DNA of 64,000 bases from Candidatus Aenigmatarchaeota archaeon (GCA_016934325.1 JAFGSV010000019.1:1197-65196); one strand, 5' to 3'. Positions 43,180 through 64,000 are shown, counted from the stretch's first letter. A program made the numbers and translations. Notes: a model not told the origin generated them from the sequence alone.

Positions 43180-43180
43180 T

Positions 43181-48557: not shown

Positions 48558-48642
48558 TCCAACACCAGATGTATTATTTTAACGTTTCTTAATATATATT
48601 TCCGACCGATTTCCGACCGGGACCCACCCGGACCCGTTGACA

Positions 48643-49308
48643 TCACCATTTCAGTGGGCACAGCATCTTTGCCAGCTCCGTCTCGTTCTTGACCAGCACA
48701 GGGAAATCCCCGCTCCCCCCTATCTGGGAATGCAGATGGTACATGTAGTTCAGCACGTCTGCGCCTGTTCCCAGCGACAGCGATGTTGAAATCATCCTCG
48801 TTACGATTTCCGCGTGATACCTCTTGGAGAAGAGCACCAGGTTGGAGAAGAGCACGTAGAGGAAGATGTGCTGGAACACGTATCTGCCATGCGTCCCGAG
48901 CATGTCCTTGTCGCTCTTGTAAAGTATCCTGAGGTTGTCGAGGTCGAAGAAGAACGTCCTGCGCCTCTCCATGAAAGGCTGGACCAGAGGCCAACCTCCC
49001 TTGACGGCGAGCTCCGGGGACCAGCCGCTGGTTGGCTTCTCCATGTGAAAAAGGTGGCTGACATAATCGGGTATCCATTCGAACTTCGGCCTTATCTTGT
49101 TCCCTGCGATATCCATGTAGCCCTGCTCGGCCATCAGTTTGAAGAGGGGCTTCCCCAAGCCCGCCTCCTTGTGGTAAAGGTAGTTCGTCTGGATCCCCCA
49201 TGTGGTCTGGATTCTGAACAGGGAGATGCCCTTCTCATGGCCCGCGCAGCTGAGCCAGATCAGCCAGAAGTTCTTGTAATCGGTGAGCTTCTCCTTCAGC
49301 GTTCCCAT
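48643..49308 (-). CDS. Hypothetical Trp-rich protein (221 aa), possible winged-helix segment
   Basis: Balanced composition. It is preferred over the overlapping R/G/P-rich ORF 48554..49201. No secure motif. Confidence 0.5.
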   Translation of the reverse strand: MGTLKEKLTDYKNFWLIWLSCAGHEKGISLFRIQTTWGIQTNYLYHKEAGLGKPLFKLMAEQGYMDIAGNKIRPKFEWIPDYVSHLFHMEKPTSGWSPELAVKGGWPLVQPFMERRRTFFFDLDNLRILYKSDKDMLGTHGRYVFQHIFLYVLFSNLVLFSKRYHAEIVTRMISTSLSLGTGADVLNYMYHLHSQIGGSGDFPVLVKNETELAKMLCPLKW

Positions 49309-49512: not shown

Positions 49513-49782
49513 CTACCAGCCAAGCGCCTTGAGCTTCTCCATGTTCCGCTTTCTCAGCTCCTTGTAGGCATTTTCAGAGATGATGCCCTGGTTGTACTCC
49601 TTCTCGAGCAGGTTGAGAACCTTGATTATCTTCGCCTTCTCTTCCTCCTTCCTGGCTGCTGCAGCTGCATCCTTCTCCACATATTTACCCTTCATGGCAG
49701 GCCCGGCTCCTATCATCTCCTTTGCGGCAGTCACCTCGGGGACCTCCCTCTTGAAGGTCCTCTCTATCCTCTTCCTGTACCT
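49513..49782 (-). other. Cytoplasmic tail of giant protein B with a SHOCT-like motif (49513..49632)
   Basis: Positive-inside residues RYRKRIERTFKR follow the TM. The terminal L-x2-L-x3-Y-x2-G-x-I-S-x2-x-Y-x2-L-x-K pattern resembles the SHOCT short C-terminal domain. Confidence 0.5.
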
Positions 49783-52700
49783 GCTCAGCAATATGACCAG
49801 CACGAGTATCGAGATTATCAACAGCATGACGAGGGTGAGCACCCAGTCGGGTATCATGAACATCGTTATCGCCCTAAGCGGAGGGGCCGCCAGGAGCAGC
49901 TCCCTCCCCCTCTCCAGCAGCCTCCATCCCGTGGTCACGGCGTTCAGGGCCTCATCGAACATCTTGGCGTCGAGATAGCCCTCGGTCATGTCTATCTGGT
50001 TCTGTATCTCATCGATTATGTCGTAGACCCTGGACAGGTCAAGCAGGCCCTCCTCTGCTGTCGCGTTCACATCCTCCCGGAAATCCTTGAACTCCTCCTT
50101 GAGCTTCTTAAGCTGGTACCTGACGAGCTCCTCCCTCGATCCGAACACGATTATCGACGTCAGCTCCTCGTCATAGGTCTCGTTCGCCGTCGCGTTGATG
50201 GTCCCGAAATACTGCCTTGCCTCCGTCCCCACGGGCACGATCAGGTTGATGACGAAAGTCTTGCCCACGCCCGGATTGAGCAGCGGCAGCATGAGCGGCT
50301 CGACTGTGTACCAGCTTGATGGTATTCCATCGATCCTTATCCTTATGTTGTGAAGGGTTGTGGTGCCCGTGTTGTTGACGGTCACCGACGGGTACTGCGC
50401 CCAGCCGACCTCCGTCGTGATCTCCTCAGGGTAATCGACTATCTCCATCTGCGGCTTTGGTGCTGGTCCGATGCCTCCTCCTTCAGGGCCTTCTGGCCCC
50501 TCTGGCCCGGGAGTCGGCCCCGGAGGCTGGGGCCCTGGAGGTCCCTCCTCGACAGTCTCGAACTCCCAGAAGGCCCCGGCCCTGTAGGGGCCGTATTGGA
50601 TGATGACCGTGATCTTCACCCAGCCGAGGTAGGTTATGCCTGGGATGTCGATGTAGTGGTCAAGGACCGAATTGGCTGCCACCTTCACCGTGGTCCCTCC
50701 TGCCCTCAGGTTCTCTCCCGTGTCCCTGATCGTAAGGTTCCAGGCCAGGTCAACGTCCACCTCCTCGTCTCCGGTATTCGTCAGTTTGGCCAACGCCTGA
50801 AGGTCGGGTATCGTGTTGTCGGTTTCCGTCACGTTGACGTCGAATAGGGCCCCGACAAGCCTCTGGAAAAGGTCCTTCGTCACGTTCTTGCCTTTGTAAG
50901 AGGCCGTAACCTCCCACCTGAATATGCCGGCTGCCAGGAACTCCGAATCCACGGTCCAGTTGTACCTTCCGGGACCCATCCGGACCGGGAATCCGGGATC
51001 CAAGGGGAAACCGGTGGAAGTGTACAGCGTGGCGCTGATGGAGTCAGGGTCTATGTTCTCGACGCCGTTCGTCAAGATCGCCACGATCGAAAGGTCCTCG
51101 GACGTCTGGGCTATCCTGTCAAGGCCTTCCAGCTCGAGCTGAACGATTCCCGGCTGGCTTTCGACGACCATGAAGTACGACTTAGTTGTGTTCGTGACGA
51201 TGTAGCTTATAGGCGTATCGTTGAACACCGAAGTCGCGGTCATGTTATAAATCCCCGTAGGCGAGTCGCTGAAAAGTGCGAAGTTCGGGAGGGTGTCGGA
51301 TTCGCCGTTCGTATTCGTTATAAAATTAGCATTGTTCAGGTTGAGGGTGCGGTTGGTCGGGTCCATGATGCCTATGCTTACGTTTACTCCCGGCAGGTCT
51401 GACCCCGAAAGGTCGGTGACGTGGCAATCGATTGTTCCCGTCTCGCCCTGGTAGTACAATCCGCTGCTCCTGGCCGTCTGGAGGCTCACGTCCATGACGG
51501 CATAGGCATAGAAGCTTCCGTTCGCGGTCTTGTTCAGCCCGATGTTGTCCTCGGTGTAAACGGAGAACGTGTAGTTGCCCCTCAGGGTGCTGTCCCCCCA
51601 GGTGCCGTTCACGCTGTCGAACGGGTAACCGATCAGGTATTCATAGGGGTCGGTGCTGCTTCCGAAACGCCTCATCAGTATGCTGTCGACGGTGTCGTCG
51701 GGCCTTGTCATATAGATGCGGGTGAAGTTTATCGGGATGCCGGATTGGCTTGTCACGTTCGCCCAAATCTCCAGGTTCCCAAGCTGAGGGATTATCCCGG
51801 GAACCGCGCTTACTCCAATCAGGGGGGCGATGTTCGGGGACAGAATGACCGTAAGATTGAGATGGGAAGGGGAGCCCTGGACTGCCGATATGTTGTAGCT
51901 TGCATTGTACAAGGTTATGTTGGCCCCCGAGATGTTGTAGAAAACGCTGAACTTGAAGGCCGTCTGGTTCTCGACCTGAAAATTAACGAACTCGGTCCAG
52001 GTATAGTTGAACATGCTAGAGCTAGAGGTCGCTGGATAGATGTTGAAGGTGATGTTGACGTTGCCGGAGTTGTTGATGGTCACGTTGCAAAGGACACCCT
52101 CCTCGGGCGATTCGGAATGCTCGCAGAAGAGGTCAGCCGGATCCGGCACGGCCCACGTCCTGCTCGCCGGGACGTTGACTGCCATGCTGAGCGTCTTGTA
52201 CCCGCCGTTATCTGATGTTATGTTCAGCAATCCACTATATTCACCTGGCGGGTAGCTGAGCGGAACGGAAACGCTCAGATTGACCCTTACGAAAGAGCCC
52301 GGAGTGAGGTTCCCGCCCGCCGTCGCCGTGATGTTCGGGATGACCTTAATTGTGAAATCGTCCAGTTCCGACAAAGGGTCCAGTACCGTGAATTCCATTC
52401 CCTCGACCGGGTCGTTCCCCGTGCAGTTCATGGTGAAATTGCCGATGATGCCGGTCGTTCCGTGGGTCACCGTCCCGTTGAGTACGTCCTCTGGTATTAT
52501 CACCGTGACATTGGACAGCACGAATATGTCGACCAGAGAGGAGTTCATCCTCATGCCAATCTCCGGGTTGTCCCAGATCACGCTCACGTTTACGGTGTAG
52601 TTGCCCGAAGGTGTCCCGTTCGAGACTGTGATCAAGTAAGAGCCTGGGCAGGACTCGGAACTCCCCAGGTTCCCGCACTCGTAATTCGTCGTGTTGCTCG

Positions 52701-55700
52701 TGTTTATGAATGGCGAAGAGAAATTCAGGGTAATGTTGACCGCATAAGCCGTGGCATTCTCGACGTTGGTGGAGTTGACGAACACGCTGAACGATTGGCC
52801 TTTGAAATAAGTGATGATGTCCGCGGTGAAGTTTGCTGGGCTGACGTTCAGCGTCAGGTTCGTGCCGGAGACCGTGACGTTGATGGGCAACTCCTCGTAC
52901 CCGCCATTGCCGCTGCTGATGTTGACCGTCCCCGAGTAATCCCCGCTGGGGTATCCGCTCTCGACCTCGAGCCACATCGGGACCTGGCTCACGTTCCCGG
53001 GGGCCATGGCCGTGATGTTCGGAGGAACGAAAGTGAAATTGAACTGGCTGACGAAGCCGGTCACGTTGAACGTCACGTTCTCAAGCTCAGCATTGCCGAA
53101 GGACCTCAGCGTCAGGTTCGCGATGTTCTTCGGGATGCCCGCGGCCACGGTGGCCGAGACGTTCTCCTCGAGGACATCCAGCACATGGGTCGGCGTGACG
53201 TTCACGGTAAGGTAGGTCTCGTTGAAATCCGATGTTGGGTTGGTGTTGTCCCAGGTGACGTTTATGAGCACCGAGAAGTTCCAGGGCGCAGTCGTCTTCC
53301 AGACTGTGATGTTGAAATCTCGCGAGCAGGTCTTGGATATCAGCACCATTCCGCAGGATGCGCTGGAAGAGTCCGATGTCAGGTTCTGGGGCAGGCCGAG
53401 ATTGATTGTGGTGTTGTATGCCGTGCCGTTCTCGGTGTTGGTTGCATTCACCGTCACCAAGAAGCTTTGATTGTTTATCCAGGTAACGTTCGAGGCGATA
53501 TAGCTCGCGGGGAATACCGATATGGACATGTTCGTCTCCAGCGCCTCCGTCGTGAAATCCTCCGTGCCGAACCCTTCGTTCCCCGTCTTGTTCGCGCTGC
53601 AGTTGAGCGTATATAGCCCATAAATCAGGGGCGATTTGAATTTCACGAAATAAGAGCCGTTGTTGAGATCCGTGATGTTGTCAGGATGGACATCGAACAG
53701 CTCCGTGGCCCCCCGGTATATGGAGCAGTTCATCGTAGCGGCCGGGTGCCACACGTCCTGCCTGAACGATAACACATCGACTGAGGCGTTGACCGCCCTT
53801 CCGGATATCCCGGTGGGGTTATAGATCGTGACGTTGACGAACAGCTCCTTCGTCACGTTGAATTGCTTCGACGAGATGTTGAGCAGGACAAGGTCCCCGT
53901 CATAAAGCCACGCGATCGCTTCCCATTTCCCGGTATTTGCGGTGTAGGCAAACTGGTAGGTGTTCGTGTATACGCCGTCTCCCGCAGTCAGATCCCCGTT
54001 CGTGCCGTCATCATACATGGTCATGTTTATGTCATCATCCGGGGACGGTGTCCCGTTATCGAGAGACAGGTTGACGTATTGGAGCAGGCTGTATGGGTCG
54101 TAGGTGATGTTGACGGTGATGAAAGCTGTCTCGTTCCTGTTGTAAATGTCCAGGTCGGTCTCCGTCCTTGAGGCCAAGGTCCGCTGGCCGAAGCCTCCGA
54201 CGACAATGACTGGGGGGCTCCTGATGGCGTCCTTCAGGGCCAGGAACTCGTCGGTCTGCCCGGTTCCCTTCCCGAAATAAGCCACCGCCTTCTCGGTTAT
54301 CGATTGGCCGGGGCTCACGGTTATGGCGCTGAGCTGAATGCCGATCCTGTCCCCAGCCGAGTTGTTGGTCGCGAAGAAGTCCGCGGCCGTCTCGTTTAAA
54401 TTGATCACGCCAACAAGATCACCATAGCTCGACAGCGCATAGAACCATGAAAACGGGTCGGTCTTGTTCCCCTGATCGATGGACGTGACCGAGCCGCCGT
54501 ACGAGCCCCAGGAATCACCGACATCGAAGGCGAGCGCACCTGCCTCGGTGGAGTTCCTGTCGATGCCGTAACCGGCTGCGTTGGTGAAGTTCTGCTCGAT
54601 CTTGATGAACGTCCCGGTCTTTTCCTGTCCCGCGTGATTGTAAACATAATATTTCTTGGTCAGCATGCCCTCGTTGGTAGGCAGGCTCGCATTGCCCCAA
54701 TAAGTCTCATTCCCGGTCTGGACAATGGTGAGCCTCACGGGCCCCGGAACGAGGGTTACGTCGTCAAAAAGCCTGAAGCCGAACGAGTCCGTGCCGTTCG
54801 AGTATTCGATGTATTCAACTGTCTTCATGTACTCATAGTCGTTGAGGAAGATGAACGGCGGGGAACCTCCCGAGTATATCTTGAAAAGGCCGCTGGCGTT
54901 CTCGCTCCTGTTCGTGTCCAGGAAGAAGTACAGCCTTGTAGTATTGAAGTGGAACTCGTCCCCGCTCCAGACATACGTCAGGTTCGTGGCATAATTTCGA
55001 TATGGCTTCGCTCCGTTCTCAAGGGTGTCGAAATGCATGTAGAAGACCCTCCTTGTGCCGTTAGTTGTTGTCCCGTTCATGATGAACACGGCGTTCCCTG
55101 CCGCATTCGTAAAAGGGTCATATGACGACAGCTGGTCGAACTGGCTGGGCAGCTCATGCATCGCTCCGCCCGAGAGGTTGTACTCGACGAGCCTGGTCGA
55201 GTTCTCGTCGAACGTGCCGCTCGCACCTACCTGCCTCAAGACGTCTGTGAAGTTCAAGTCCCATTCAACGGGCCAGTTCGAAACGTTGGAATCGCCGGTA
55301 TCGACAACGAACCTCATCCTGTAGCCCCAGGTGTCGTTCCACCACTCGTATCGATTCAGGTAAATCCCGTCGCTGTCCGTGACGTTGAGCGTCTCGAATC
55401 CCCCGGCCGCGCCGTCGCAGAGCACGTTCCAGCTGAAGTTGCCAATGTTGCTGAACGTCCTGTTGTACGCGTAAAGGGATGAAGCCGCGTCAAAGTACAT
55501 CGCGGCCGGGGCGCTCCAAGCACCGGTTTCGTTGAATCTTATCTCGCAGTAGACCCCGCTTCCGTTGATGGGCTCCGATGAGGTCAAGTTCGTGAAATTG
55601 GCGAAGAAGAAGACCGGCTCGTTTATGAATGCCGGCTCGTTCCCGCCGAGCGCCTCGCTCGAGTCCCAGACCCCGAGCCGCGAGTCGGTTCCGGTGACGA

Positions 55701-55794
55701 ACGCGAAGAAGCCCGTGAAGGCGGGCTGCAGGTAAATTCCTGCAGCTAACAAAGCGGCCACGACAAGTATCTGCAACAGCCTCATCCCTAACAT
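49513..55794 (-). CDS. Giant surface protein B (2093 aa): signal/anchor, sequon-rich ectodomain, Pro/Gly linker, membrane-proximal CARDB/NEW3-like domain, helical stalk, TM, SHOCT-like cytoplasmic tail
   Basis: N-terminus MLGMRLLQILVVAALLAAGIYL. Very frequent N-x-S/T sequons (NFTNLT, NGSG, NETG, NRTF, NFSW, NVTD...). Linker PPGPQPPGPTPGPEGPEGPEGGG. TM ITMFMIPDWVLTLVMLLIISILVLVILLS (49783..49869). The 89-aa tail ends KIIKVLNLLEKEYNQGIISENAYKELRKRNMEKLKALGW. Confidence 0.85.
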   Translation of the reverse strand: MLGMRLLQILVVAALLAAGIYLQPAFTGFFAFVTGTDSRLGVWDSSEALGGNEPAFINEPVFFFANFTNLTSSEPINGSGVYCEIRFNETGAWSAPAAMYFDAASSLYAYNRTFSNIGNFSWNVLCDGAAGGFETLNVTDSDGIYLNRYEWWNDTWGYRMRFVVDTGDSNVSNWPVEWDLNFTDVLRQVGASGTFDENSTRLVEYNLSGGAMHELPSQFDQLSSYDPFTNAAGNAVFIMNGTTTNGTRRVFYMHFDTLENGAKPYRNYATNLTYVWSGDEFHFNTTRLYFFLDTNRSENASGLFKIYSGGSPPFIFLNDYEYMKTVEYIEYSNGTDSFGFRLFDDVTLVPGPVRLTIVQTGNETYWGNASLPTNEGMLTKKYYVYNHAGQEKTGTFIKIEQNFTNAAGYGIDRNSTEAGALAFDVGDSWGSYGGSVTSIDQGNKTDPFSWFYALSSYGDLVGVINLNETAADFFATNNSAGDRIGIQLSAITVSPGQSITEKAVAYFGKGTGQTDEFLALKDAIRSPPVIVVGGFGQRTLASRTETDLDIYNRNETAFITVNITYDPYSLLQYVNLSLDNGTPSPDDDINMTMYDDGTNGDLTAGDGVYTNTYQFAYTANTGKWEAIAWLYDGDLVLLNISSKQFNVTKELFVNVTIYNPTGISGRAVNASVDVLSFRQDVWHPAATMNCSIYRGATELFDVHPDNITDLNNGSYFVKFKSPLIYGLYTLNCSANKTGNEGFGTEDFTTEALETNMSISVFPASYIASNVTWINNQSFLVTVNATNTENGTAYNTTINLGLPQNLTSDSSSASCGMVLISKTCSRDFNITVWKTTAPWNFSVLINVTWDNTNPTSDFNETYLTVNVTPTHVLDVLEENVSATVAAGIPKNIANLTLRSFGNAELENVTFNVTGFVSQFNFTFVPPNITAMAPGNVSQVPMWLEVESGYPSGDYSGTVNISSGNGGYEELPINVTVSGTNLTLNVSPANFTADIITYFKGQSFSVFVNSTNVENATAYAVNITLNFSSPFINTSNTTNYECGNLGSSESCPGSYLITVSNGTPSGNYTVNVSVIWDNPEIGMRMNSSLVDIFVLSNVTVIIPEDVLNGTVTHGTTGIIGNFTMNCTGNDPVEGMEFTVLDPLSELDDFTIKVIPNITATAGGNLTPGSFVRVNLSVSVPLSYPPGEYSGLLNITSDNGGYKTLSMAVNVPASRTWAVPDPADLFCEHSESPEEGVLCNVTINNSGNVNITFNIYPATSSSSMFNYTWTEFVNFQVENQTAFKFSVFYNISGANITLYNASYNISAVQGSPSHLNLTVILSPNIAPLIGVSAVPGIIPQLGNLEIWANVTSQSGIPINFTRIYMTRPDDTVDSILMRRFGSSTDPYEYLIGYPFDSVNGTWGDSTLRGNYTFSVYTEDNIGLNKTANGSFYAYAVMDVSLQTARSSGLYYQGETGTIDCHVTDLSGSDLPGVNVSIGIMDPTNRTLNLNNANFITNTNGESDTLPNFALFSDSPTGIYNMTATSVFNDTPISYIVTNTTKSYFMVVESQPGIVQLELEGLDRIAQTSEDLSIVAILTNGVENIDPDSISATLYTSTGFPLDPGFPVRMGPGRYNWTVDSEFLAAGIFRWEVTASYKGKNVTKDLFQRLVGALFDVNVTETDNTIPDLQALAKLTNTGDEEVDVDLAWNLTIRDTGENLRAGGTTVKVAANSVLDHYIDIPGITYLGWVKITVIIQYGPYRAGAFWEFETVEEGPPGPQPPGPTPGPEGPEGPEGGGIGPAPKPQMEIVDYPEEITTEVGWAQYPSVTVNNTGTTTLHNIRIRIDGIPSSWYTVEPLMLPLLNPGVGKTFVINLIVPVGTEARQYFGTINATANETYDEELTSIIVFGSREELVRYQLKKLKEEFKDFREDVNATAEEGLLDLSRVYDIIDEIQNQIDMTEGYLDAKMFDEALNAVTTGWRLLERGRELLLAAPPLRAITMFMIPDWVLTLVMLLIISILVLVILLSRYRKRIERTFKREVPEVTAAKEMIGAGPAMKGKYVEKDAAAAARKEEEKAKIIKVLNLLEKEYNQGIISENAYKELRKRNMEKLKALGW

Positions 55795-55798
55795 GCCA

Positions 55799-57823
55799 TC
55801 ATTTCTTCAGCAACATCCTCTTGCTCTTTTCATAAGCCCTTCTGCTGATCTCCCCGTTCTTGTAGGATTCCTGGAGCTTAGCCAGCATCATCGCCTTGCT
55901 GTGGCGCTTCCCGCCACCGCCGCCGGTTGCCGCCGGATCTTCGCCCTTCTGGGCCTTCGGCTTCGAGTAGGACGCTATCTTGGCGTCGATCTCCCTTATC
56001 CTCTGCAGGTTCTTGGTCTTGGCGCTGTTGAACTCCTCCTCCGATATGTCCTTGTTGCGCAGGTTCTCCTCCAGCGTGCTCAGCAGCGTCTCGATCTCCT
56101 CCTTCTCCTCCTGCAGCATCTTGGCCTCGGGCGGGAGCTCGATTTCGGTAGACTTCGCTGCCTTCATGGCCTGTTCCTTCACTTCGGAAACCGCCTGCTT
56201 GACGACTTCCATGTCGTCCCTGGTCGCATAATCCGACAGCCTCCTTGTCACGTCCTCCATGTTCTTCATGATGTCCGCCAGCATTCCTTCGGTCTTGTCC
56301 TGCCTGACCCTGTAGGTGTTGAATTCGTCAAGGCGCTTCCTCAGCTCCACGTACAGGCCGTCCAGCTTTGTCGAAGCCGCCTTCATCCTCTCCTCGATCT
56401 CCTGTATCCTCTCGAGCTTCTCCCCCACGAGCTTGCTGCCCTTCATTATGTTCTCCAGGCTTCCGATATCGGTCATGAGGCCCTTTATCCTGTTCATCGT
56501 GTCGGAGAGCATCTTCCCGCTCCTCTCGAGCCTCTCTATCCTCGTGTTTACGTCCCTCATCTGCTCGTCCCTCGTCGTGAACTCCCTCAGAATCCTGGCC
56601 GAATCCACCTGCGATATGGCGTCCTTGAGCTTGTCGAAGACGACCTCCTGCTCCTTTGATTGCGCTTCCCTCTGATATACGATCGACCTGATCTCGGCGA
56701 AGCTCTCCATCATCCTCTGGATCTTATCATCAGTGACGTTCTTTGCTTCCTTCATGCTCTCGACCAGGGCCTTGCTCTTCTCGACCTCCGTGTTCATCTT
56801 CGTGAACTGCTTGTCAAAGCCTGCCACCGTCTCGCCGGCCTTCTTCAGGTCCTTCAGTTCCGATTCTATAGAGCTGATCCTGTCATCGACCTTCTTGATC
56901 CTCTTGTCCGTCATCTCAAGGCTGGCCGCGGTTATGACATCCTTCATGCGGTCCCCTACCATCTTCTCGAAGTCCTCAAGTACCGGGACTGAGGAAAAGA
57001 TACCTGGCCTCTGGGTCTGCGCGGCCGCCTCCGTTGGGGCTTCGGGCCGTGCAGCTCCCGTCACGACGACGGGCCTCTCCTGCGCGGCAGCCGCGACCGG
57101 CGCCTCTTGCGGGGCGGGCCTCTCCTCCACCTTCACGCCGGAGGCTTCCAGCCTCTTTATCTTGTCCTCCAGCTCCTTGAGCTTGTTCTCGTTCTTTGAC
57201 CTGACCTCCTGGTAGGTCTTGTCCGGGAGAGTGGCTTCCCTGTAGGCATCCTCTATCGAAGAAAGCAGCGCCTCAACCTCATCCTTCTGGGCAATAAGCT
57301 CTGACATGGTCTCCACCGGATTCTCTCCTGGCGCCGTCTCATCCTTGGTGGTCTTTCCATGTTTTCCCTTCTTCTTTACGGGTTTTCTTCCCTTCTTCGG
57401 CCTCGCGTCCTTACTATGACCTTTGACATCATTCCGGGATCCTGCGCCTTCGGGCTTGTCGTCGTCTGGCGCCCCTTGCGTGCCTTCGTCTGGTTTCCGG
57501 TCCCCTTTTCCAGCAGCTTCAGTATTTCCCCCGGAGTCAGATTCCTTCGGCTTATCGGGCCTTTTTCCAGGCTTCGATGAATCGCCTTTGGCACCAGCCG
57601 CGCTCAGGCCTTTAACCCCCGTATCTGAATCTTCCTTTCCCTCCATAACACCAGCCTCCTTCTGCGCCTCCTCGTTATCCTTCCCGCCGCGCTTTTCAAG
57701 CATGACGCGGAACTTGGACCCGAACCTCTTCCGCAGCCCGCCTATGCCGCCTCCGTCATCCGTCCGATCCGCATCCCGCCGGGCATCGCCGCCCGCTCCC
57801 GTATCCTCGCCTTTGCCTTTCAT
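55799..57823 (-). CDS. Coiled-coil protein (674 aa) with highly charged disordered N-terminus and SHOCT-like C-terminus
   Basis: N-terminal ~170 aa are G/K/D/E/P-rich. A central helical region follows. SHOCT-like segments are LLSSIEDAYREATLPDKTYQEVRSKNENKL, LLSTLEENLRNKDISEEEFNSAKTKNLQRI and the C-terminal MLAKLQESYKNGEISRRAYEKSKRMLLKK. The stop lies 4 nt before the giant B start. Confidence 0.75.
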   Translation of the reverse strand: MKGKGEDTGAGGDARRDADRTDDGGGIGGLRKRFGSKFRVMLEKRGGKDNEEAQKEAGVMEGKEDSDTGVKGLSAAGAKGDSSKPGKRPDKPKESDSGGNTEAAGKGDRKPDEGTQGAPDDDKPEGAGSRNDVKGHSKDARPKKGRKPVKKKGKHGKTTKDETAPGENPVETMSELIAQKDEVEALLSSIEDAYREATLPDKTYQEVRSKNENKLKELEDKIKRLEASGVKVEERPAPQEAPVAAAAQERPVVVTGAARPEAPTEAAAQTQRPGIFSSVPVLEDFEKMVGDRMKDVITAASLEMTDKRIKKVDDRISSIESELKDLKKAGETVAGFDKQFTKMNTEVEKSKALVESMKEAKNVTDDKIQRMMESFAEIRSIVYQREAQSKEQEVVFDKLKDAISQVDSARILREFTTRDEQMRDVNTRIERLERSGKMLSDTMNRIKGLMTDIGSLENIMKGSKLVGEKLERIQEIEERMKAASTKLDGLYVELRKRLDEFNTYRVRQDKTEGMLADIMKNMEDVTRRLSDYATRDDMEVVKQAVSEVKEQAMKAAKSTEIELPPEAKMLQEEKEEIETLLSTLEENLRNKDISEEEFNSAKTKNLQRIREIDAKIASYSKPKAQKGEDPAATGGGGGKRHSKAMMLAKLQESYKNGEISRRAYEKSKRMLLKK

Positions 57824-57857: not shown

Positions 57858-58968
57858 TCACATCGCCTTCACCCGGTTGCTAACGGATTCTATGTAGCTC
57901 TCCGCCATCGTGAAAAGCCCCTGCTTCAGCTTGTCCCTGGCGAGGTTGAGTTCCACCTCCACGTCGCTCGTTTCGACCCCCCTCTTCTTCATGTCGTCGA
58001 GCTTCTTCTGGATCTCGTCGACCGACTTGCCTATCTTGACGTACTTGTCCAACTCCTCCGCCGTCAGCCTCTTGGTATCATGGAGCAGCGGCCTGAAGCT
58101 CACGAACCACGGCTTCCCGTTGTTGTAGCTCGCGTTCTGCATGAGCCCCGTCCCCGTCACGAGCTTGGTGATCTTGCTGGCATAGTCCGGGCCGTACTTG
58201 GTCTTGACCCTGTTTATGTCGCCCTCGTACTTCGTCCTGAGCTGTATCTCGGTCGATATGTTCGCCCTTATGGCTCCCCTGAAGTCCATGAGCACCTGGG
58301 ATATCATGAATATCCCGACGCCCCACTTCCTGAACTCCCTGCACGCCCTCTCGAGCACGATATAGCCGCCCTTGCCTCCATATTTCGGAAGCAGCCTGTG
58401 GACCTCGTCGTATATGAGCATCATCCTCATCTCCCTTGCCTCCGGCAACCTCATCTCGAAAAGGCTCTCGACGCTCCTCCTGACGAACTTGTCCATCTCC
58501 TTGTTGGGAAGCTTCTCCGTGACAAGCACCGTCATCTCTCCCTTCTTCTCCATGATATCCTTCCAAGGTATCGGTTGGTCGCCGTTCTCGATCATTATGA
58601 TGTTCACCTTGTAAGCCCTTGCGTCGTCGGGCTTCATGCCGAACTGCGGGTAGAGGTTCAGCATCGCCGGGTCCTTGCATGGCCTCATGAAGCCGGTCCA
58701 CTGGGCAGTCGGGTCGACAACGACTATGGGTATGCCTCTCTTGAGCAGCTCCTCCGAGCAGACCTGGGCCGACACCGACTTCCCGGCGCCCGTGGAACCC
58801 GCCGCTATGCTGTGGGTGGTGAGGTCGTCAAGGGTCATGTACGCCTTCATGTCGGTCTCGGCGATCTTCCCGACCAGAAGCGACCTGTCCCCGGGCTTGG
58901 GCAGCTTTCCGACATCCATCGGGAATATGTACCTGGCCTTCGATTTCTTCTTCTTCCTGTACATCGAG
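57858..58968 (-). other. Cytoplasmic HerA/FtsK-superfamily ATPase domain of giant protein A
   Basis: Walker A AAGSTGAGKSVS (about 58776-58802), Walker B MLIYDEVHRLLP (about 58387-58420), GVGIFMISQVLMDFRGAIRANISTEIQLRT, and a C-terminal coiled-coil ELDKYVKIGKSVDEIQKKLDDMKKRG. The motif order parallels the stand-alone ATPase at 31453..32742. Confidence 0.75.
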
Positions 58969-61900
58969 AAGAACCTGCTGCCGAAGTAGTAGCCGGGGAT
59001 AAGCGCAAACAGTATCGCATACGTTATCCAGCTCGAGAAGATGGACATGAGCATCTTGATGGGGAGCGGCACGTATATTATGTCGAAGGAGTCTATCGCG
59101 AAAGCCTGCTTCCTGCCGTCCCAGTAAGTCGCGTTGATCTCGATGACGTACCTTCCGAACGATGTGTCGGCCGGTATCTCGATGGACTTCTTGAAGGTCT
59201 TCACGTTCTCTATTGCCAGCGTCTCCCTCTTCCTGATAATGACGTTCTCCGTCTCCAGGCTCTTGATATCATAGGTCACGACGATGTCGTCGATATCTGC
59301 CGTTTCCCCCATGTTCAGCAGGGTGACCTCCAGCGTGAGGTTCGTGCCCGGCTCCACCGTCTTCGAAAGCGCCTTGACCCCCACGTCGAGCAACGGCTCC
59401 TTGGGCCTCTCCACCTTGACGGTTATGGGGGTGACGTGGGTTATGTTCCTTTCCCTGATCCTGGTTATAATGTCGCCTGTGTATATCCCCTCCATCGTCG
59501 ACGGCAGGGTGAACACCTTGATCTTGACAGTTCCCGTGGAGCTTCCCCTGATGTCGAAGACCGGCCTCTCTATCATGACCAGCTCCCAGACATTGCCCTC
59601 CACGCTAACGTCCACCGTTATCGCGCTGCCCAGGTTGTTGGTGACGTCGATGCTGTGTATCTCATGCTCCCCCGGCCTGAGTGTCACGAATATGAGACTC
59701 GACTTTATTTCCACCGGGACCCTGGGCACGCCGACGGCCCCCACCGCGCCGGCTCCGACCCCGCTTGGCCCTCCGGGGGTCGGGGGTTTAGGCGGGACTG
59801 GCTCGGGAGTAACATGCCTGCAGTCCTGCGGGCAGTTGGCGTTAGACTCGCCGTAGTCCTCCTCGCACTCTCCGTTGCCGCAGACGTACTCGGCCAGCGC
59901 GTACGCATCCCCGATCGAGGTCATGAATGCCGCCAAGGTGGTGTTCGACGGGTAGACAGCGACGTTGCTCATCCTGGTCCAAACGCTTCCGCACCCGGTC
60001 CTCCTCGTCCAATTGGTGCATTGGTAGATGCCCAGCACTTTCGGGCTGGCGATTTCATCCTCGAACTCGCTGTAGTTGAAAACCAGAGTGGCGTTGGTCA
60101 TGTTAAGCGTGGTGTTGACCGTGATGCCCCTGAACAGCCCCCTGACGTTCATGCCTATCAGTTTTGTCATGATGTTGCCGAAGCACAGCGGGTTGAAGAC
60201 ATCCGATTGTATGCCGACCCCCCTGATCCCAAGGGATTCGTTCCACAGGTGCAGGTCGATGTTGTACACCCCGGAGTCGATCGTCTGGTTGTAGGTACCC
60301 GCCTGATCGGTGCTGAAGTTGAAGTACGACATGCCTTCGATGTAATAAAGGCTGAAATCAACGCTCAACGGGTCCTTGGGAGCCGTGTCCTCTTCGTCAA
60401 CCGCCTTACCGTGGAACAATATGAGCACAGAGACCAGGAAGGACGCGGAAGTCCCGTTCATGTTCCCCGACATGTCGTAGACCGTCGCGTTTACGTAGTA
60501 ATCACCGGTCTGCGAGGTGTTCGTGAACTGTCCCTGATACGTGTAGGTGTCTCCTATCCTTCCCAAAAGGTAGAGGGAGAGGTTCTCGGTTACATTGTGA
60601 TGGCTAACCGTGGCAGTCACGTTTTTCACGCCGCCAGGCTCTATTATGTCAACGGTTACCGTCGCAATCGAGTTAAGCGAGACCTTCGGAGGAACGCTTA
60701 TCGATATGTCCGGGGGTGAGGTATCCGTGTATATCACGGACTTGTACGCGACATCCCAGTAATAAAGGCTGGTATTGGTGCCATTCATGGTATAGTTGGC
60801 GGAGACGTTCAGGTCGTATCCCCTGTCCAGCTCCAGGTCTGGGGCGGTGAAATTGATCAGCCAATAGCTCTCGTTGGTGACGTTGTCCAAGATCCAGATG
60901 ATATATGTCAAGTTGACATTGAAGGTATCCGTTCCGTTAGAAAGGCTTATATTCCATGCTACGGTGTCGTTCGAGGTTATCGTGTAGTTCCCGTATGTGA
61001 GATTCGCCATCACCCGGACGCTGTCGTTCCAATTCACATTCACGACAGGGTTTGACTCGGTCGGTGATAGGATGTCCACGAAGTATGGGTGCACGGTTAA
61101 GTTCAGGACGGTGGTCTCTATCTTCTCGCCAGCCTCCGCCGTCCAGTTCCTCGTCCTGGCATAGGCGTAGAAAGTGGAGAACTGGCTCACAACCGGCGCC
61201 GTGTAATTGACCTCAAGCTGCCGTGAACCGCCGATGGGGATGTCGATAATCTGCTGGTCCTCTTCAAGCACGAAGTACTGCGGGTATCCTCCGGTTCCCC
61301 TGTAAACGTCGAGCTCAAGATAAACATTCCCCAGGTTCTCGACATATATCTTGCCGAGCGTGCCGTTAGTTCCCTGGATTACGGTCTTGGCGAGCTGTGG
61401 AGTCACCGACCAGGTCAGGTTGGTGGGTATCCTCACGTACACGTCGATGTCATCGTATACCCCCTCGTCGCTAGTCACTTCGAGCATGCCGGAGTACTGC
61501 GCAGCGGGATAGTCCATCGGCACGTAGACCCCGACGCTGATGTTGGCGATTTGCCCGGATTCGAGAACGGACAGGCCGGGAGGCACGAATACCGTGCTGA
61601 AGTTCACGCACACCTCGCCCATGACGCAGTCGAAATCGATGTTTGTGACGTTGACGTTCCCGACGGATTTCACCTGCATCGTCTCGTTCCCGTAAGTGAC
61701 GTTCATTATCCATATGGTGATGTTCTGCCCAAGTATCTCGATGGCCGGATTCGGCTCCACCACGACGAGGACGGTTGTGGTGCTGTTGCCGGTCGTGCTG
61801 TCTATGTTTGTCCATCCGGCTGTGAAGTTGATGGTGTAATTTCCGGCCGGCGTTCCATCCGGCACCGAAAGCGTTATGTTCCCCTCTTTGCTTGAGTTCT

Positions 61901-64000
61901 TGTATATTACCCCGAAGTCGAACGTGCCCGGCGTCACGTTCCACCCGCTTCCTGCCGTCGCATTAACCGACACGTTGTATGCCCTTGCGTACCCGGCGGT
62001 CGCGTTGAAGGCCAGGGCATAAGAGCTGCCATTGTAAATCGTGATGTTATGTATGTATATCGTCGAGACGTTGGGCACGACCGTAACGGCGGTGTTCGCG
62101 GTCGCTGTGCCGTTTATATCGACGCACCTCATCAGGTTGTACGTGTCATTCGCGCATATCTTGAACTGGTAAAGGCCTGTCACGCCTGTCGAGAAGTTAT
62201 GGTAATAATAAGAGCCGTTATGATCCATGGGGACGGTGGTTACACCTCCGATCGTGTTTGTTATGTTTATCCATGCGTAATCCACCGCCTCGTTGTCACT
62301 TATTATGGCGTTCACCGTAGCATTGCTGAAGATTATCTCGAAAACCGGCGGGTCGACGCTGGCATTCTCGATGGTCGGCGGCGGGTTTGTTATGTTCATG
62401 ATGAAGGTCACGTCCCTGGGAGTGGGCGGGGCAGGATCCGTCGTGCCGGTGATGATCGCTGTGATCGTGATCTTGTTGCTGTACTCTCCCGGCGTTGCCA
62501 GAGCCGGCACGGAATAGTTGATGAAGAGCTGTCCCGAAGTCTGCTTTCCTACGTCGAAAGCTTTGTAGAGGTCGTTCGTCCCGTTTATAAGAACGTAAGC
62601 TGGGGTCGAGCCGCCCTTGTAGAAGGTCAGGGTAACCTTGACGTTGCCCGTGTTCGAGAAGTTTATCACGCCGATCGAGCCTTGGGTGGCAAGCGGCGTC
62701 AGGATGGCACCGAAGGTGCTGGGGGCATTCAGCCAGCTGCTGTTCACAAGCACTGTCATATTCAGCAGGGCTTCATCGTACTCTGCGTTGCTGACGTTCG
62801 CCCTCAGCTTGGTCCAATAATCTCCCGGCTGCTGGCCGGCCGGCAAGGTCACCTCGATGTCGGAGGTGAAATTATCACCGGCGGCCAGGTATCCCTGATA
62901 ATCGGGAACAAGCTCAAGTGTGCAGACGGGGCAGTTTACCCTGAAATTGCCACCGACATCCTGCATGTTTACAAGAAGCAGCGGAGAGTTGCCCGTGGAT
63001 GCTATCGTTATGTTCCCGACGAATGTCTTCATGCCATGCTGTATCTGCTTGTAGACATAGTTCTCAAGGATATCAACGACGGGGTTGGATGCCACGACCA
63101 CGGTGGTTGTGCCCACCGTGGTGTTTATGGTCTTGTCCGGATTCCTCCACGTCGCATTGGCCGTGATTGTGATGAGGCCCGGAGGCGTCTTCGGCTTTAT
63201 AGTGACTATTATCTTCCAAACGCATGATTCGCCGGCTTCCATGGTCTGGCATGAGACGTCCGACTGGTTGTACTGCACTTTTCCTCCGGAGTCGTCGTAG
63301 ACGCTGAGATTGACGTTATAAGCGTGGGCAGGTCCGGGGTTGGTGAAATTCATCGTAAGGTTGAAGGGATATCCGCCAGTCTGGGTTATGTTGCTGGCCG
63401 TAAGCCACGACGGGCTAGAGTTCATGATGCCATCGACCTTGCCCCATACCGAGAAATTATAGATAGCCGACTCGTTCATGTTATGCTCCGTGTACGGGTC
63501 CCACGCCCTTATGGTGACGTTGAAGAGGCCGCCCACTGCAGGCAGGTACTGGACCCTATAGGTGTCATTCGCGATCTCCGTCATGTTGAGGTCCACGTAT
63601 CCGTCTCCCGGTATCCCTATGTGCGCCTTGACATCGTAGACATCATAGTTGTCGATTGCCATGGCCGTGATGTTCGTGTAATTCAGGTTGGCTTCCAGGC
63701 TGGCGTTAGGTATGATCGTTATATTGAAAATCTGCGGCGGCTGCTGGTCCTCGATCGTGTATGTGGCGAACGCCTCCGTCGGGTCGGATGCGTTGTACAG
63801 CATGCTCTGGTTGTCGGTAATGTTGCACTTGAAGTATATGACCCCTTTGCTCTCAGGGATCCACAGATGGGTTATGTAGCCGCTGATATTCGAGTAGTGC
63901 GAACCGTTGAATGTATAGTCGGCACCGTTGTAGCTGTACCAGACCTTGACGAGATAGTCCTTAACGGGGTTGTCCTCCGGCCTGTCCTTCACCTGGCAGG
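57858..64000 (-). CDS. Giant surface protein A (more than 2044 aa, 5'-truncated by the window edge) fused through one TM helix to a cytoplasmic HerA/FtsK-like ATPase
   Basis: The frame stays open to nt 64000 and there is no signal peptide at the track start (GTG). The ectodomain is sequon-rich with repeated modules. Cys motif CGNGECEEDYGESNANCPQDC. Linker PEPVPPKPPTPGGPSG. Two CARDB-like domains. TM MSIFSSWITYAILFALIPGYYFGSRFF (about 58969..59047). Then RKKKKSKAR and the ATPase domain. Confidence 0.85.
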   Translation of the reverse strand, partial: CQVKDRPEDNPVKDYLVKVWYSYNGADYTFNGSHYSNISGYITHLWIPESKGVIYFKCNITDNQSMLYNASDPTEAFATYTIEDQQPPQIFNITIIPNASLEANLNYTNITAMAIDNYDVYDVKAHIGIPGDGYVDLNMTEIANDTYRVQYLPAVGGLFNVTIRAWDPYTEHNMNESAIYNFSVWGKVDGIMNSSPSWLTASNITQTGGYPFNLTMNFTNPGPAHAYNVNLSVYDDSGGKVQYNQSDVSCQTMEAGESCVWKIIVTIKPKTPPGLITITANATWRNPDKTINTTVGTTTVVVASNPVVDILENYVYKQIQHGMKTFVGNITIASTGNSPLLLVNMQDVGGNFRVNCPVCTLELVPDYQGYLAAGDNFTSDIEVTLPAGQQPGDYWTKLRANVSNAEYDEALLNMTVLVNSSWLNAPSTFGAILTPLATQGSIGVINFSNTGNVKVTLTFYKGGSTPAYVLINGTNDLYKAFDVGKQTSGQLFINYSVPALATPGEYSNKITITAIITGTTDPAPPTPRDVTFIMNITNPPPTIENASVDPPVFEIIFSNATVNAIISDNEAVDYAWINITNTIGGVTTVPMDHNGSYYYHNFSTGVTGLYQFKICANDTYNLMRCVDINGTATANTAVTVVPNVSTIYIHNITIYNGSSYALAFNATAGYARAYNVSVNATAGSGWNVTPGTFDFGVIYKNSSKEGNITLSVPDGTPAGNYTINFTAGWTNIDSTTGNSTTTVLVVVEPNPAIEILGQNITIWIMNVTYGNETMQVKSVGNVNVTNIDFDCVMGEVCVNFSTVFVPPGLSVLESGQIANISVGVYVPMDYPAAQYSGMLEVTSDEGVYDDIDVYVRIPTNLTWSVTPQLAKTVIQGTNGTLGKIYVENLGNVYLELDVYRGTGGYPQYFVLEEDQQIIDIPIGGSRQLEVNYTAPVVSQFSTFYAYARTRNWTAEAGEKIETTVLNLTVHPYFVDILSPTESNPVVNVNWNDSVRVMANLTYGNYTITSNDTVAWNISLSNGTDTFNVNLTYIIWILDNVTNESYWLINFTAPDLELDRGYDLNVSANYTMNGTNTSLYYWDVAYKSVIYTDTSPPDISISVPPKVSLNSIATVTVDIIEPGGVKNVTATVSHHNVTENLSLYLLGRIGDTYTYQGQFTNTSQTGDYYVNATVYDMSGNMNGTSASFLVSVLILFHGKAVDEEDTAPKDPLSVDFSLYYIEGMSYFNFSTDQAGTYNQTIDSGVYNIDLHLWNESLGIRGVGIQSDVFNPLCFGNIMTKLIGMNVRGLFRGITVNTTLNMTNATLVFNYSEFEDEIASPKVLGIYQCTNWTRRTGCGSVWTRMSNVAVYPSNTTLAAFMTSIGDAYALAEYVCGNGECEEDYGESNANCPQDCRHVTPEPVPPKPPTPGGPSGVGAGAVGAVGVPRVPVEIKSSLIFVTLRPGEHEIHSIDVTNNLGSAITVDVSVEGNVWELVMIERPVFDIRGSSTGTVKIKVFTLPSTMEGIYTGDIITRIRERNITHVTPITVKVERPKEPLLDVGVKALSKTVEPGTNLTLEVTLLNMGETADIDDIVVTYDIKSLETENVIIRKRETLAIENVKTFKKSIEIPADTSFGRYVIEINATYWDGRKQAFAIDSFDIIYVPLPIKMLMSIFSSWITYAILFALIPGYYFGSRFFSMYRKKKKSKARYIFPMDVGKLPKPGDRSLLVGKIAETDMKAYMTLDDLTTHSIAAGSTGAGKSVSAQVCSEELLKRGIPIVVVDPTAQWTGFMRPCKDPAMLNLYPQFGMKPDDARAYKVNIIMIENGDQPIPWKDIMEKKGEMTVLVTEKLPNKEMDKFVRRSVESLFEMRLPEAREMRMMLIYDEVHRLLPKYGGKGGYIVLERACREFRKWGVGIFMISQVLMDFRGAIRANISTEIQLRTKYEGDINRVKTKYGPDYASKITKLVTGTGLMQNASYNNGKPWFVSFRPLLHDTKRLTAEELDKYVKIGKSVDEIQKKLDDMKKRGVETSDVEVELNLARDKLKQGLFTMAESYIESVSNRVKAM

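Follow-up and report, generated by a model that had tools for sequence, protein, structure and literature searches.

The abundant DPANN archaea live off other cells, and the SPEARE proteins are leading candidates for attachment to and exchange with their hosts, a role in host contact that has so far been hypothesised. Examples include NAR1_1133 of Ca. Nanohaloarchaeum antarcticus (5,998 aa); Ca. Nanopetramus SG9; and SVXNc_0300 (9,409 aa) (PMC6642349, PMC10266531). The IMG annotation of NAR1_1133 reads 'NEW3 domain'. Hamm 2019 (PMC6642349) described SPEARE with the layout that we report here, detected the protein by proteomics, and noted that its intracellular part has homologues in Altiarchaeales and among Aenigm-, Woese-, and Micrarchaeota. 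Reva 2023 (PMC10266531) laid out SPEARE as a signal peptide, Ig repeats, a transmembrane (TM) helix, an ATPase, and a coiled coil, gave the intracellular domain a new annotation, that of a VirB4/TraG-like ATPase with the coiled coil behind it, and reported second ATPase copies downstream in nanohaloarchaea. The same study disputed the serine-protease, laminin-G, and restriction-endonuclease domains in SPEARE, and found no endonuclease domain.

Within the 64,000-nucleotide stretch of DNA analysed here (the window; all features of the locus lie on the minus strand), a giant gene is almost certainly an Aenigmarchaeota member of the SPEARE family. Its last 626 residues were compared by BLASTP with the Ca. 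Nanohaloarchaeum antarcticus SPEARE C-terminus, taken from Fig. S18 of Hamm 2019, and shared 35% identity (E 1e-114) in a colinear match that ran through the Ig domains, TM helix, ATPase, and coiled coil. The original prediction had been aware of no described family with this architecture, but the match over 626 residues identifies it as the SPEARE family of Hamm 2019 (PMC6642349). The window protein resembles SPEARE in its giant extracytoplasmic Ig/NEW3-rich region, one TM helix near the C-terminus, cytoplasmic P-loop ATPase, and terminal coiled coil, and short (~717 aa) and giant versions stand side by side in the family. It differs from SPEARE of Nanohaloarchaeota in its source, an Aenigmarchaeota MAG, in its non-halophilic composition, and in its downstream neighbours, which are a coiled-coil partner, a second giant TM protein, and MinD in place of an immediately adjacent second ATPase gene. 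In the 2,046 aa that are visible, Pfam found none of the domains that gave SPEARE its name (serine protease, laminin-G, restriction endonuclease); the N-terminal part lies outside the window.

The gene is an uninterrupted ORF (57858..>64000) that stays open to the window end; 57858..63998 translates as 2,046 codons with 0 stops ahead of the stop codon at 57858..57860. The size of more than 2,000 aa originally given for the protein is a lower bound, because the N-terminus lies outside the window. Going towards the C-terminus, its product has a sequon-rich ectodomain (at least 1,650 residues), a single TM helix, a basic cluster, a P-loop ATPase of the HerA/DUF87 type, and a terminal coiled coil. 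The orthologue at locus L012, in a different genome, is colinear with the window protein over residues 1-2043 at 44-47% identity, including the junction, and extends at least 1,590 residues further upstream. A misassembly or frameshift might have joined a surface-protein gene to a separate TM-ATPase gene, and a separate gene of this kind (~550-700 aa) does follow the giant gene at loci L004 and L015. However, the L012 orthologue crosses the junction colinearly over 2,043 residues; the Cys-rich motif, two Ig domains, TM helix, and ATPase form one conserved unit that is also present in 720-aa forms and in SPEARE; the fusion is repeated across dozens of independent assemblies; and the L004 giant gene itself terminates in its own ATPase tail. 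Colinearity and recurrence rule out such an artefact, whose probability we regard as negligible. The open ORF, the L012 orthologue, and recurrence in the family instead establish that the fusion originally proposed, of surface protein and ATPase in one polypeptide, is genuine and recurrent.

The visible extracellular region (59049..64000, residues 1-1650 of the partial translation) consists of NEW3/CARDB-like and other beta-sandwich modules. Pfam NPCBM_assoc/NEW3 matched it in two stretches (E 7.8e-18), alongside weak Ig-like matches, while no laminin-G, protease, toxin-like, or PQQ-propeller domain was detected by Pfam in these visible 1,650 aa, upstream of which the N-terminal part lies outside the window. 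The region is colinear with the membrane-proximal ectodomains of 2,000-6,250-aa family members (33-49% identity), and with L012. The Cys-rich motif CGNGECEEDYGESNANCPQDC (59820..59882) and the Pro/Gly-rich linker after it (59715..59807) open a conserved core module of ~700 aa, whose two membrane-proximal Ig-like/NEW3-like domains (59049..59693) were delimited by alignment to ~720-aa homologues and the SPEARE C-terminus. Those ~720-aa homologues match the window protein at 48% over 626 aa, and short family members begin with the same Cys-rich motif (for example, P0097, CGNNRCETGENEYNCPQDC).

A single TM helix, MSIFSSWITYAILFALIPGYYFG (58980..59048, residues 1651-1673), is followed by the positive-inside cluster RKKKKSKAR (58932..58958), assigned from the K+R count in the flanks: the 20 flanking residues hold 1 on the outer (N-terminal) side and 8 on the inner (C-terminal) side. 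N-X-S/T sequons number 93 in the 1,650 ectodomain residues, compared to 23.5 expected from composition, and the 373-residue tail has 2; the density per 100 aa is 5.6 outside and 0.5 inside. Among 144 family representatives, the median sequon density is 4.9 per 100 aa for the ectodomain and 0.18 for the tail, and 137 of the 144 carry a hydrophobic segment at most 130 residues upstream of Walker A. The sequon and charge asymmetries place the ATPase inside the cell and bear out the cytoplasmic ATPase, single hydrophobic helix, and positive-inside cluster of the original prediction. Hydrophobic segments that resemble signals occur at the N-terminus of a complete relative of 3,671 aa (L013) and of the 720-aa forms; the N-terminus of the window protein is outside the window. 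From these sequence features, we predict that the giant protein, which is built of Ig/NEW3-like modules and anchored in the membrane by one stop-transfer helix, is exported by Sec and N-glycosylated.

The HerA/DUF87-type P-loop ATPase core (58086..58883) was delimited by Pfam, PDB profile search, AF2, and Foldseek. It contains Walker A, GSTGAGKS (58776..58799); Walker B, (ML)IYDEVH (58398..58421); a REFRKWG block with invariant arginines (58320..58340); and ISQ (58296..58304). Pfam scored DUF87/HerA central at 34.3 bits against a gathering cut-off of 23.2 and HerA_C at 36.6 against 22 (PF01935, PF05872), and the PDB profile search returned HerA (4d2i, E 3.1e-14). The AF2 model of the tail, a monomer with a pLDDT of 90.4, had Sulfolobus HerA (4d2i) as its best Foldseek match (E 4.8e-12), followed by HerA-NurA, SIR2-HerA, the TcpA coupling protein, EccC, B204, and VirB4. 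The fold matches thus range across the FtsK-HerA superfamily, and the tail carries its defining features: Walker A, Walker B (hhhhDE), then a conserved polar residue that follows the next strand, with one or more conserved arginines ahead of it. Walker A is present in 144/144 family representatives and Walker B in 136/144. A 43-sequence alignment showed G108/T110/G111/G113/K114, D238/E239/H241, the REFRKWG arginines, and S274/Q275 to be invariant, and R261/R264 may form the arginine finger. The C-terminal helical/coiled-coil extension (57861..58061; AF2 helices 354-379, 385-399, and 403-419) has its own invariant residues in this alignment (D386, E390, K397, and Y409).

The original reading of the tail as a HerA/FtsK-superfamily P-loop ATPase is thus supported by Pfam, AF2, and Foldseek; all of the motifs that it quoted were found in place, the Walker motifs are conserved in relatives, and DUF87/HerA and HerA_C occur above their Pfam cut-offs together with NPCBM_assoc/NEW3 in the same polypeptide, a combination that it had proposed to look for. 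Its stand-alone copy of the ATPase at 31453..32742 did not turn out to be a close one: BLASTP aligned the motif regions only (E 5e-4), and we rejected this gene as a paralogue, since the similarity stays at the level of motifs; it encodes a separate HerA/mad8-like protein, a distant superfamily relative.

Judged from sequence comparison and the predicted fold, the ATPase is nearest to HerA, yet lies outside HerA, VirB4, and FtsK proper. It shares with HerA proteins (4d2i, 9x1l; SIR2-HerA, DUF4297-HerA) a RecA-like core, the DUF87 signature, Walker A and B, and a REGRKxG-type arginine block; HerA proteins also work as hexameric rings, an assembly that the tail may share. In structural alignments, identity to HerA was 11-18% with a TM-score of about 0.45-0.5. 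NCBIfam HerA models scored the tail at 17-26 bits against cut-offs of 800-970, with only the core aligned and no full-length HerA match. The HAS-barrel N-terminal domain is absent from the tail, where the TM helix and a linker come before the core, and the tail differs from HerA further in having no NurA, Sir2, or DUF4297 partner and in being anchored in the membrane behind a giant ectodomain. An N-terminal membrane anchor followed by a cytoplasmic FtsK-HerA-superfamily motor is also the arrangement of TcpA (6o1w), VirB4 (4ag6), FtsK/SpoIIIE, and EccC, and type IV coupling proteins, VirB4, FtsK, and EccC are functionally the closest analogues for a translocation ring tethered to the membrane. 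Unlike HerA, however, these motors matched the tail more weakly; the tail lacks the all-alpha domain, VirB4 N-domain, and FtsK gamma domain of T4CP, VirB4, and FtsK; and the anchor of T4SS/FtsK motors is a small domain of 2-4 TM helices, whereas here it is the end of a huge extracellular protein.

The family comprises 3,927 representative proteins at E<=1e-3 and 435 (clusters at 50% identity) at E<=1e-30. The 144 closest representatives are mostly 1,000-6,900 aa long with the ATPase at or near the C-terminus (best new representatives: median 1,650 aa, 63 above 2,000 aa, maximum 6,873 aa). The ATPase fusion recurs with ectodomains from 0 to >15,000 aa, and a gene call of 15,808 aa at L004 bears this ATPase tail. 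Two members, P0010 and P0111, have no ectodomain at all, from which it follows that the ATPase can act without the adhesin.

Downstream of the ATPase gene, after 34 nt, lies the gene of a 674-aa cytoplasmic coiled-coil partner (55799..57823); JXC85_03890, from a Ca. Aenigmarchaeota MAG, shares 100% identity with this partner. No Pfam family matched the partner, and its AF2 model consists of long helices (pTM 0.23). The genome scan for family loci returned at least 18 loci; among the loci listed, a profile search placed the partner family immediately or 1-2 genes downstream of the ATPase gene in 12/15, and the profile gave no match to the window's remaining coiled-coil proteins. By this sequence similarity, the putative partner family is found from Aenigm- to Woese- and Micrarchaeota and Altiarchaeales. 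MGLFKK-type N-termini in Woesearchaeota prompted us to consider a PspA/ESCRT-III-like protein, which was rejected for want of Pfam support, and matches to SHOCT-like motifs, both in the partner and in the second giant protein's tail, stayed below threshold (E 0.004-0.1).

The second giant surface protein (2,093 aa, 49513..55794) starts 4 nt past the partner gene. It combines a signal/anchor at the N-terminus with a sequon-rich ectodomain (111 sequons in 1,947 aa), a C-terminal TM helix, and a helical cytoplasmic tail of 90 aa that has 0 sequons. A 306/344-aa protein encoded at the corresponding position in L001 matches its last ~310 aa, and a 1,971-aa protein in L012 matches its whole length. 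A 6-kb Logan contig spans the tail end of the ATPase gene, the partner gene, and the start of the second giant gene. Between the second giant gene and MinD lies a putative conserved protein of 221 aa (48643..49308) with no Pfam match and 49% identity over 221 aa at the syntenic L012 position; an overlapping ORF (48554..49201, 215 aa) was dismissed as an alternative-frame artefact, being Arg/Gly/Pro-rich with 28% identity in L012. The archaeal MinD-type ATPase (47787..48557) scored 234 bits with NCBIfam TIGR01969 minD_arch against a cut-off of 201.75 and is syntenic with the module in L001/L002 and L012; the order of second giant gene, 221-aa gene, and MinD holds in L001 and L012. Among the loci listed, those of Aenigmarchaeota type alone show synteny of MinD and the second giant protein; the Woese- and Micrarchaeota loci do not. 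tRNA and Rfam scans found nothing in the window. The neighbourhood yielded no polytopic channel protein, pilin, or further secretion component, so that no translocation path is apparent.

We favour the reading that this SPEARE member is, in general terms, a host-contact motor, with a probability of about 0.65, and weighed it against other functions. In a T4SS- or conjugation-like system, the tail would be an ATPase of the VirB4/TraG class, with the giant protein serving as a 'straw' for injecting effectors into a host (Reva 2023, PMC10266531), or the locus would import DNA as Ced/Ted do. A membrane-anchored FtsK-HerA-superfamily ATPase whose fold matches TcpA, EccC, and VirB4 is consistent with this, as are precomputed TrwB/T4SS-DNA_transf/FtsK Pfam matches on some homologues, second ATPase copies downstream in L004, L015, and L019, as in nanohaloarchaea (PMC10266531), and weak NCBIfam matches to CedD, TraC, and TraD. 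These T4SS and Ced models, however, all fall far under their cut-offs on the tail (TraC-F 27 bits vs 567; SXT_TraD 20.5 vs 366; CedD, NF053655, 35.3 vs 600, with only the Walker A region aligned), AAA_10 also stays below (25 vs 27.5), PF03135 (the VirB4 N-terminal domain) and PF02534 gave no match, and the sequence as well as the fold agrees better with HerA. Over 40-64 kb of the window, no gene for a VirB6-like channel, VirB3, a pilin, or a relaxase occurs; T4SS or T7SS partner genes were likewise not found at the locus, and the locus is chromosomal, syntenic across genomes, and not part of a mobile element. We consider this explanation unlikely. HerA proteins, including antiphage ones, are the best sequence and fold matches of the tail, and PADLOC returned mad8 (1.4e-13) and HerA (1.7e-11), which would fit a membrane-tethered defence or DNA-repair ATPase such as SIR2-HerA, DUF4297-HerA, or HerA-NurA. 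No Sir2, DUF4297, or NurA is fused or adjacent, the neighbours being a coiled-coil protein and a giant surface protein; the HAS-barrel and adequate HerA scores are missing, as described above; and those systems offer no counterpart to the constant tie with a glycosylated ectodomain, so that a defence function seems highly improbable.

The original interpretation of SPEARE as a type III restriction-enzyme-like nuclease/helicase that degrades imported host DNA drew on matches to type III restriction enzyme helicase domains (Hamm 2019, PMC6642349), and a few homologues do have precomputed ResIII/DEAD Pfam matches (PF04851, PF00270). It is already largely refuted and, in our estimate, very unlikely: no ResIII, DEAD, or nuclease family matched the window tail in Pfam at E<=0.01, the fold is HerA-like rather than that of an SF2 helicase, and the re-analysis of Reva 2023 (PMC10266531) found no endonuclease domain. 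The locus might alternatively serve the archaeon's own envelope or cell cycle, with no host role, by anchoring or patterning the surface layer or by handling DNA at division as FtsK does, with MinD and coiled-coil proteins as organisers. An archaeal MinD and several long coiled-coil proteins are encoded next to the gene, the family occurs in most DPANN lineages sampled with a conserved core gene order, and short forms have just two Ig domains or none. Yet the MinD linkage is confined to Aenigmarchaeota-type loci, the hypervariable ectodomain length (0 to >15,000 aa) is typical of adhesins and contact proteins rather than housekeeping envelope parts, and neither an FtsK gamma domain nor a PF01580 match was found in the window tail. 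An envelope or cell-cycle function is thus quite improbable.

For the host-contact motor that we prefer, we assume from its phylum that the source organism depends on a host. By analogy with related motors, the tail is probably a ring-forming, active NTPase, and on balance we lean towards a role in host or cell contact; that it translocates a substrate, rather than signalling or remodelling, is a tentative view that we hold with somewhat less than even confidence. The tail would form a ring, probably a hexamer, at the inner membrane face, like HerA, T4SS coupling proteins, and FtsK, and the ring would gather several ectodomain stalks into one surface fibre. ATP hydrolysis could then power the movement of DNA or protein, or mechanical remodelling, at the site of host-cell contact, with the downstream coiled-coil protein as a possible cytoplasmic scaffold or adaptor. 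Construction or positioning of the apparatus may be aided, in Aenigmarchaeota, by MinD and the second giant TM protein. The contact-coupled transport suggested in the original prediction coincides with the role hypothesised in the literature. A bolder proposal, which we rate as rather unlikely, is that the SPEARE-type ATPase is the motor of a conserved multi-gene transfer machine of a new, envelope-spanning class, with outer parts unrelated to T4SS, that moves DNA or proteins between DPANN cell and host. Its parts would be the giant fibre-ATPase, the coiled-coil partner, and, in some lineages, the second giant TM protein and MinD, with a HerA-like ring covalently tied to extracellular stalks; we found no description of such an apparatus in the papers that we consulted.

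The window contributes an Aenigmarchaeota member to a kind of protein that was already known. To this, our analysis adds that the family is large; that its cytoplasmic domain is HerA-like, rather than a restriction enzyme or canonical VirB4; that a specific coiled-coil partner travels with the ATPase gene across phyla; and that Aenigmarchaeota-type loci also encode a second giant TM protein and an archaeal MinD. Collectively, the coiled-coil partner, the HerA-like domain, and the size of the family provide concrete handles for biochemistry and cryo-ET.

The ATPase gene lies on the minus strand and is open at the window end, with 2,046 sense codons on translating 57858..63998. In this translation we located every motif quoted in the original prediction where it had been placed: the TM helix MSIFSSWITYAILFALIPGYYFG (58980..59048), RKKKKSKAR (58932..58958), Walker A GSTGAGKS (58776..58799), Walker B IYDEVH (within 58398..58421) and ISQ (58296..58304), all on the minus strand. 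The proposed union of HerA-like and NEW3-like domains in one polypeptide was borne out by Pfam, with the tail passing the cut-offs for DUF87/HerA-central (34.3 against 23.2 bits) and HerA_C (36.6 against 22 bits) and the ectodomain matching NPCBM_assoc/NEW3 (E 7.8e-18). The visible ectodomain is homologous to the membrane-proximal 1,300-1,400 residues of members of 4,000-6,250 aa, so the complete protein is probably several thousand residues long.

Archaeal N-glycosylation is known to be restricted to exported segments. N-X-S/T sequons occur 93 times in the 1,650 ectodomain residues, compared with 23.5 predicted by composition, and twice in the 373-residue tail, while the 20 residues flanking the TM helix contain one K/R on the N-terminal side and eight on the C-terminal side. 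Sequon distribution and flanking charge both place the ATPase inside the cell, as its description as a cytoplasmic tail required. The same asymmetry was observed across 125 family representatives, with medians of 4.9 sequons per 100 aa in the ectodomain versus 0.18 in the tail. The protein has an extracellular stalk that is glycosylated, a single TM helix and, on the cytoplasmic side, an ATPase whose catalytic motifs are intact and conserved.

The original prediction was right in both its observation and its structural interpretation, but its suggestion of novelty was wrong: it knew of no family built this way, and SPEARE proteins had already been published. Reva et al. 2023 reported giant surface proteins of nanohaloarchaea with this layout: they carry a Sec signal, domains of the Ig and PQQ-propeller types, and ~75 Ig-like domains, then a TM helix, a 'VirB4/TraG-like ATPase' in the cytosol, and a coiled coil at the end. 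The authors equated them with the SPEARE proteins that Hamm et al. 2019 had described (PMC10266531). The latter study identified the intracellular part as the most conserved SPEARE region, described versions from 655/717 aa up to 8,553 aa, detected a SPEARE protein by proteomics, presented gel fractions that hint at cleavage between the ectodomain and the TM-ATPase part, and noted similar sequences in Woesearchaeota, Aenigmarchaeota, Micrarchaeota, and Altiarchaeales (PMC6642349), the same phyla found among our listed loci. Using the Ca. Nha. antarcticus sequence from the Hamm 2019 supplement (PMC6642349), we aligned the window protein with the C-terminal 611 residues of SPEARE. Over 626 columns the two are 35% identical (E 1e-114), and the match extends from the pair of Ig domains across the TM helix and the ATPase into the coiled coil. 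In both proteins a giant Ig ectodomain is joined through a TM helix to an ATPase in the cytosol and a final coiled coil, and the window protein is a new member, from Aenigmarchaeota, of the SPEARE kind already known.

An assembly artefact was rejected as an explanation for the fusion, since the ORF is colinear in a second genome and the fused tail recurs in independent ones. On a 164-kb contig of an uncultured archaeon (L012), an ORF is colinear with residues 1 to 2043 of the window protein at 44-47% identity and extends at least 1,590 residues upstream of the matched part. The tail also ends a complete 3,671-aa ORF in a Woesearchaeota locus (L013), ORFs of at least 3,772 aa in Micrarchaeota (L006) and at least 2,429 aa in an uncultured archaeon (L015), and a 15,808-aa gene call in Woesearchaeota GCA_021734865.1 (L004).

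When 1.84 billion representatives were searched exhaustively with an HMM, 3,927 proteins scored E<=1e-3, of which 435 reached E<=1e-30. Among the best 144 new family representatives, the median length was 1,650 aa and the maximum 6,873 aa, with 63 exceeding 2,000 aa and 19 exceeding 4,000 aa. Walker A was present in all 144 and Walker B in 136, a hydrophobic segment lay just N-terminal to Walker A in 137, and in most the ATPase was at or near the C-terminus. In a minority of family representatives the ATPase is N-terminal, with a long extension behind it. Some members, from Aenigmatarchaeota and Micrarchaeia, are labelled at NCBI as 'DUF87 domain-containing protein' or 'NEW3 domain-containing protein'. 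Short members of ~720 aa comprise, in order, a signal peptide, Cys-rich motif, Pro-rich linker, two Ig-like domains, TM helix, ATPase, and coiled coil. Exactly this core forms the C-terminus of the window protein (48% identity over 626 aa), beginning at a Cys motif (59820..59882, minus strand). At L004 positions 1-12100, the gene call has a SPEARE-type TM-ATPase tail of its own at the end, and another copy of the core module, 699 aa long, follows directly with a stop/start overlap; tandem copies also occur in L015 and a further locus, L019.

The conservation expected of the Walker motifs was evident in an alignment of 43 homologues, in which G108, T110, G111, G113, and K114 of Walker A and D238, E239, and H241 of Walker B (tail numbering) are invariant, as are R261-E-F-R-K-W-G267, S274, and Q275. 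An AlphaFold2 model of the tail built from this alignment (pLDDT 90.4, pTM 0.83) predicted a RecA-like core, preceded by a long TM/juxtamembrane helix and followed by three helices at the C-terminus. In a Foldseek search of the PDB with the model, Sulfolobus HerA 4d2i ranked first (E 4.8e-12), followed by HerA-NurA, SIR2-HerA, and DUF4297-HerA, with TcpA coupling protein, EccC, STIV2 B204 packaging ATPase, and VirB4 lower. A PDB-sequence profile search likewise placed HerA at the top (E 3.1e-14) and FtsK at the bottom (E 0.0098), and the NCBIfam HerA, CedD, TraC, and TraD models matched only partially and far below their cut-offs. Because HerA leads by both fold and sequence while the NCBIfam matches are partial and sub-threshold, the tail is a distinct branch of the FtsK-HerA superfamily, nearest to HerA/DUF853 and outside HerA, VirB4, T4CP, and FtsK proper.

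The window's stand-alone HerA/DUF87-type ATPase (429 aa, 31453..32742, minus strand; PADLOC mad8 8e-24 plus several HerA models) is only a distant relative of this tail. It is followed by a small Ala/Pro-rich membrane protein (30935..31402, minus strand). Three PQQ-like beta-propeller paralogues of ~430 aa (23376..24668, 28178..29476, and 29519..30820, minus strand) share N- and C-terminal motifs, are without signal peptides, and look cytoplasmic; PQQ-like propellers are reported within nanohaloarchaeal SPEARE ectodomains (PMC10266531). Elsewhere, an intein with a LAGLIDADG homing-endonuclease domain splits the myo-inositol-1-phosphate synthase gene (10016..12517, plus strand). The region 16000..22000 may be a foreign island, given its G+C of 0.40-0.45 versus 0.50-0.62 in the rest of the window and its genes for an 863-aa methyltransferase-domain protein and a 445-aa HTH protein.

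The gene 34 nt downstream of the ATPase gene encodes a 674-aa coiled-coil protein (55799..57823, minus strand), with long helices predicted over its C-terminal ~390 residues. It is 100% identical to JXC85_03890 of a Ca. Aenigmarchaeota MAG, which identifies such a MAG as the origin of the window. With a profile built on this partner, we found a homologue directly after the ATPase gene, or within two genes of it on the downstream side, in 12 of the 15 listed loci that have downstream sequence, including L001 (6690-8273), L004 (12097-14187), L006 (11414-13018), L012 (11307-12812), and L013 (11620-12897), across four lineages: Aenigmarchaeota, Woesearchaeota, Micrarchaeota, and Altiarchaeales. 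The profile did not match the window's three other long coiled-coil proteins, so its signal goes beyond mere coiled-coil composition. No Pfam family covers the partner, and we found no mention of its family in the SPEARE papers PMC6642349 and PMC10266531. The C-terminal helical extension of the ATPase protein and the partner gene are both conserved.

Four nucleotides after the partner gene begins a second giant protein (2,093 aa, 49513..55794, minus strand). It has a signal at the N-terminus, contains 111 sequons, and finishes with a C-terminal TM helix and a helical cytoplasmic tail of 90 aa. Over its whole length it corresponds to a 1,971-aa protein in L012, while its last ~310 residues match a 306/344-aa protein that occupies the equivalent place in L001, a 'minimal' Aenigmarchaeota locus; like the ATPase protein, it therefore has small and giant editions. 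For each of the module's two membrane proteins, the ectodomain is an expandable add-on to a conserved core in the membrane and cytoplasm. Next come a conserved 221-aa protein (48643..49308, minus strand; 49% identity and synteny in L012) and an archaeal MinD (47787..48557, minus strand; TIGR01969, 234 bits, above cut-off), whose synteny with the SPEARE module holds in both L001 and L012. A 215-aa ORF in another frame (48554..49201, minus strand) overlaps the 221-aa ORF, is Arg/Gly/Pro-rich, and was rejected as an artefact. Beyond MinD are three long coiled-coil genes (629, 740, and 865 aa; 40582..47347, minus strand) with weak SMC/Rad50-like coiled-coil matches. At the other end of the window, a 1,435-aa protein (42..4349, plus strand) with a hydrophobic anchor at its C-terminal end, basic residues after that anchor, and no Pfam match is a candidate further large surface protein.

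HerA, T4CPs, and FtsK are ring-forming ATPases. By analogy, the tail may assemble into a ring at the membrane, probably hexameric, which would gather several stalks into one fibre and could spend ATP on moving a polymer or on mechanical work. A classical secretion system is disfavoured by the lack of a channel, pilin, or other T4SS gene nearby and by the tail's poor scores against T4SS models. The original reading of the SPEARE cytoplasmic domain as a restriction enzyme is likewise at odds with the predicted HerA-like fold, and Pfam returned no nuclease or SF2 helicase match for the tail. The MinD and coiled-coil neighbours leave some room for a part in the archaeon's own envelope or in its division. 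The hypervariable ectodomain and the DPANN lifestyle suggest host contact, the role proposed by Hamm 2019 (PMC6642349) and Reva 2023 (PMC10266531), which we retain as the putative function of the SPEARE family. Our analysis adds that the ATPase is best assigned as HerA-like, and it adds a measure of how large the family is, a conserved coiled-coil partner, and synteny with a paired giant protein and MinD.
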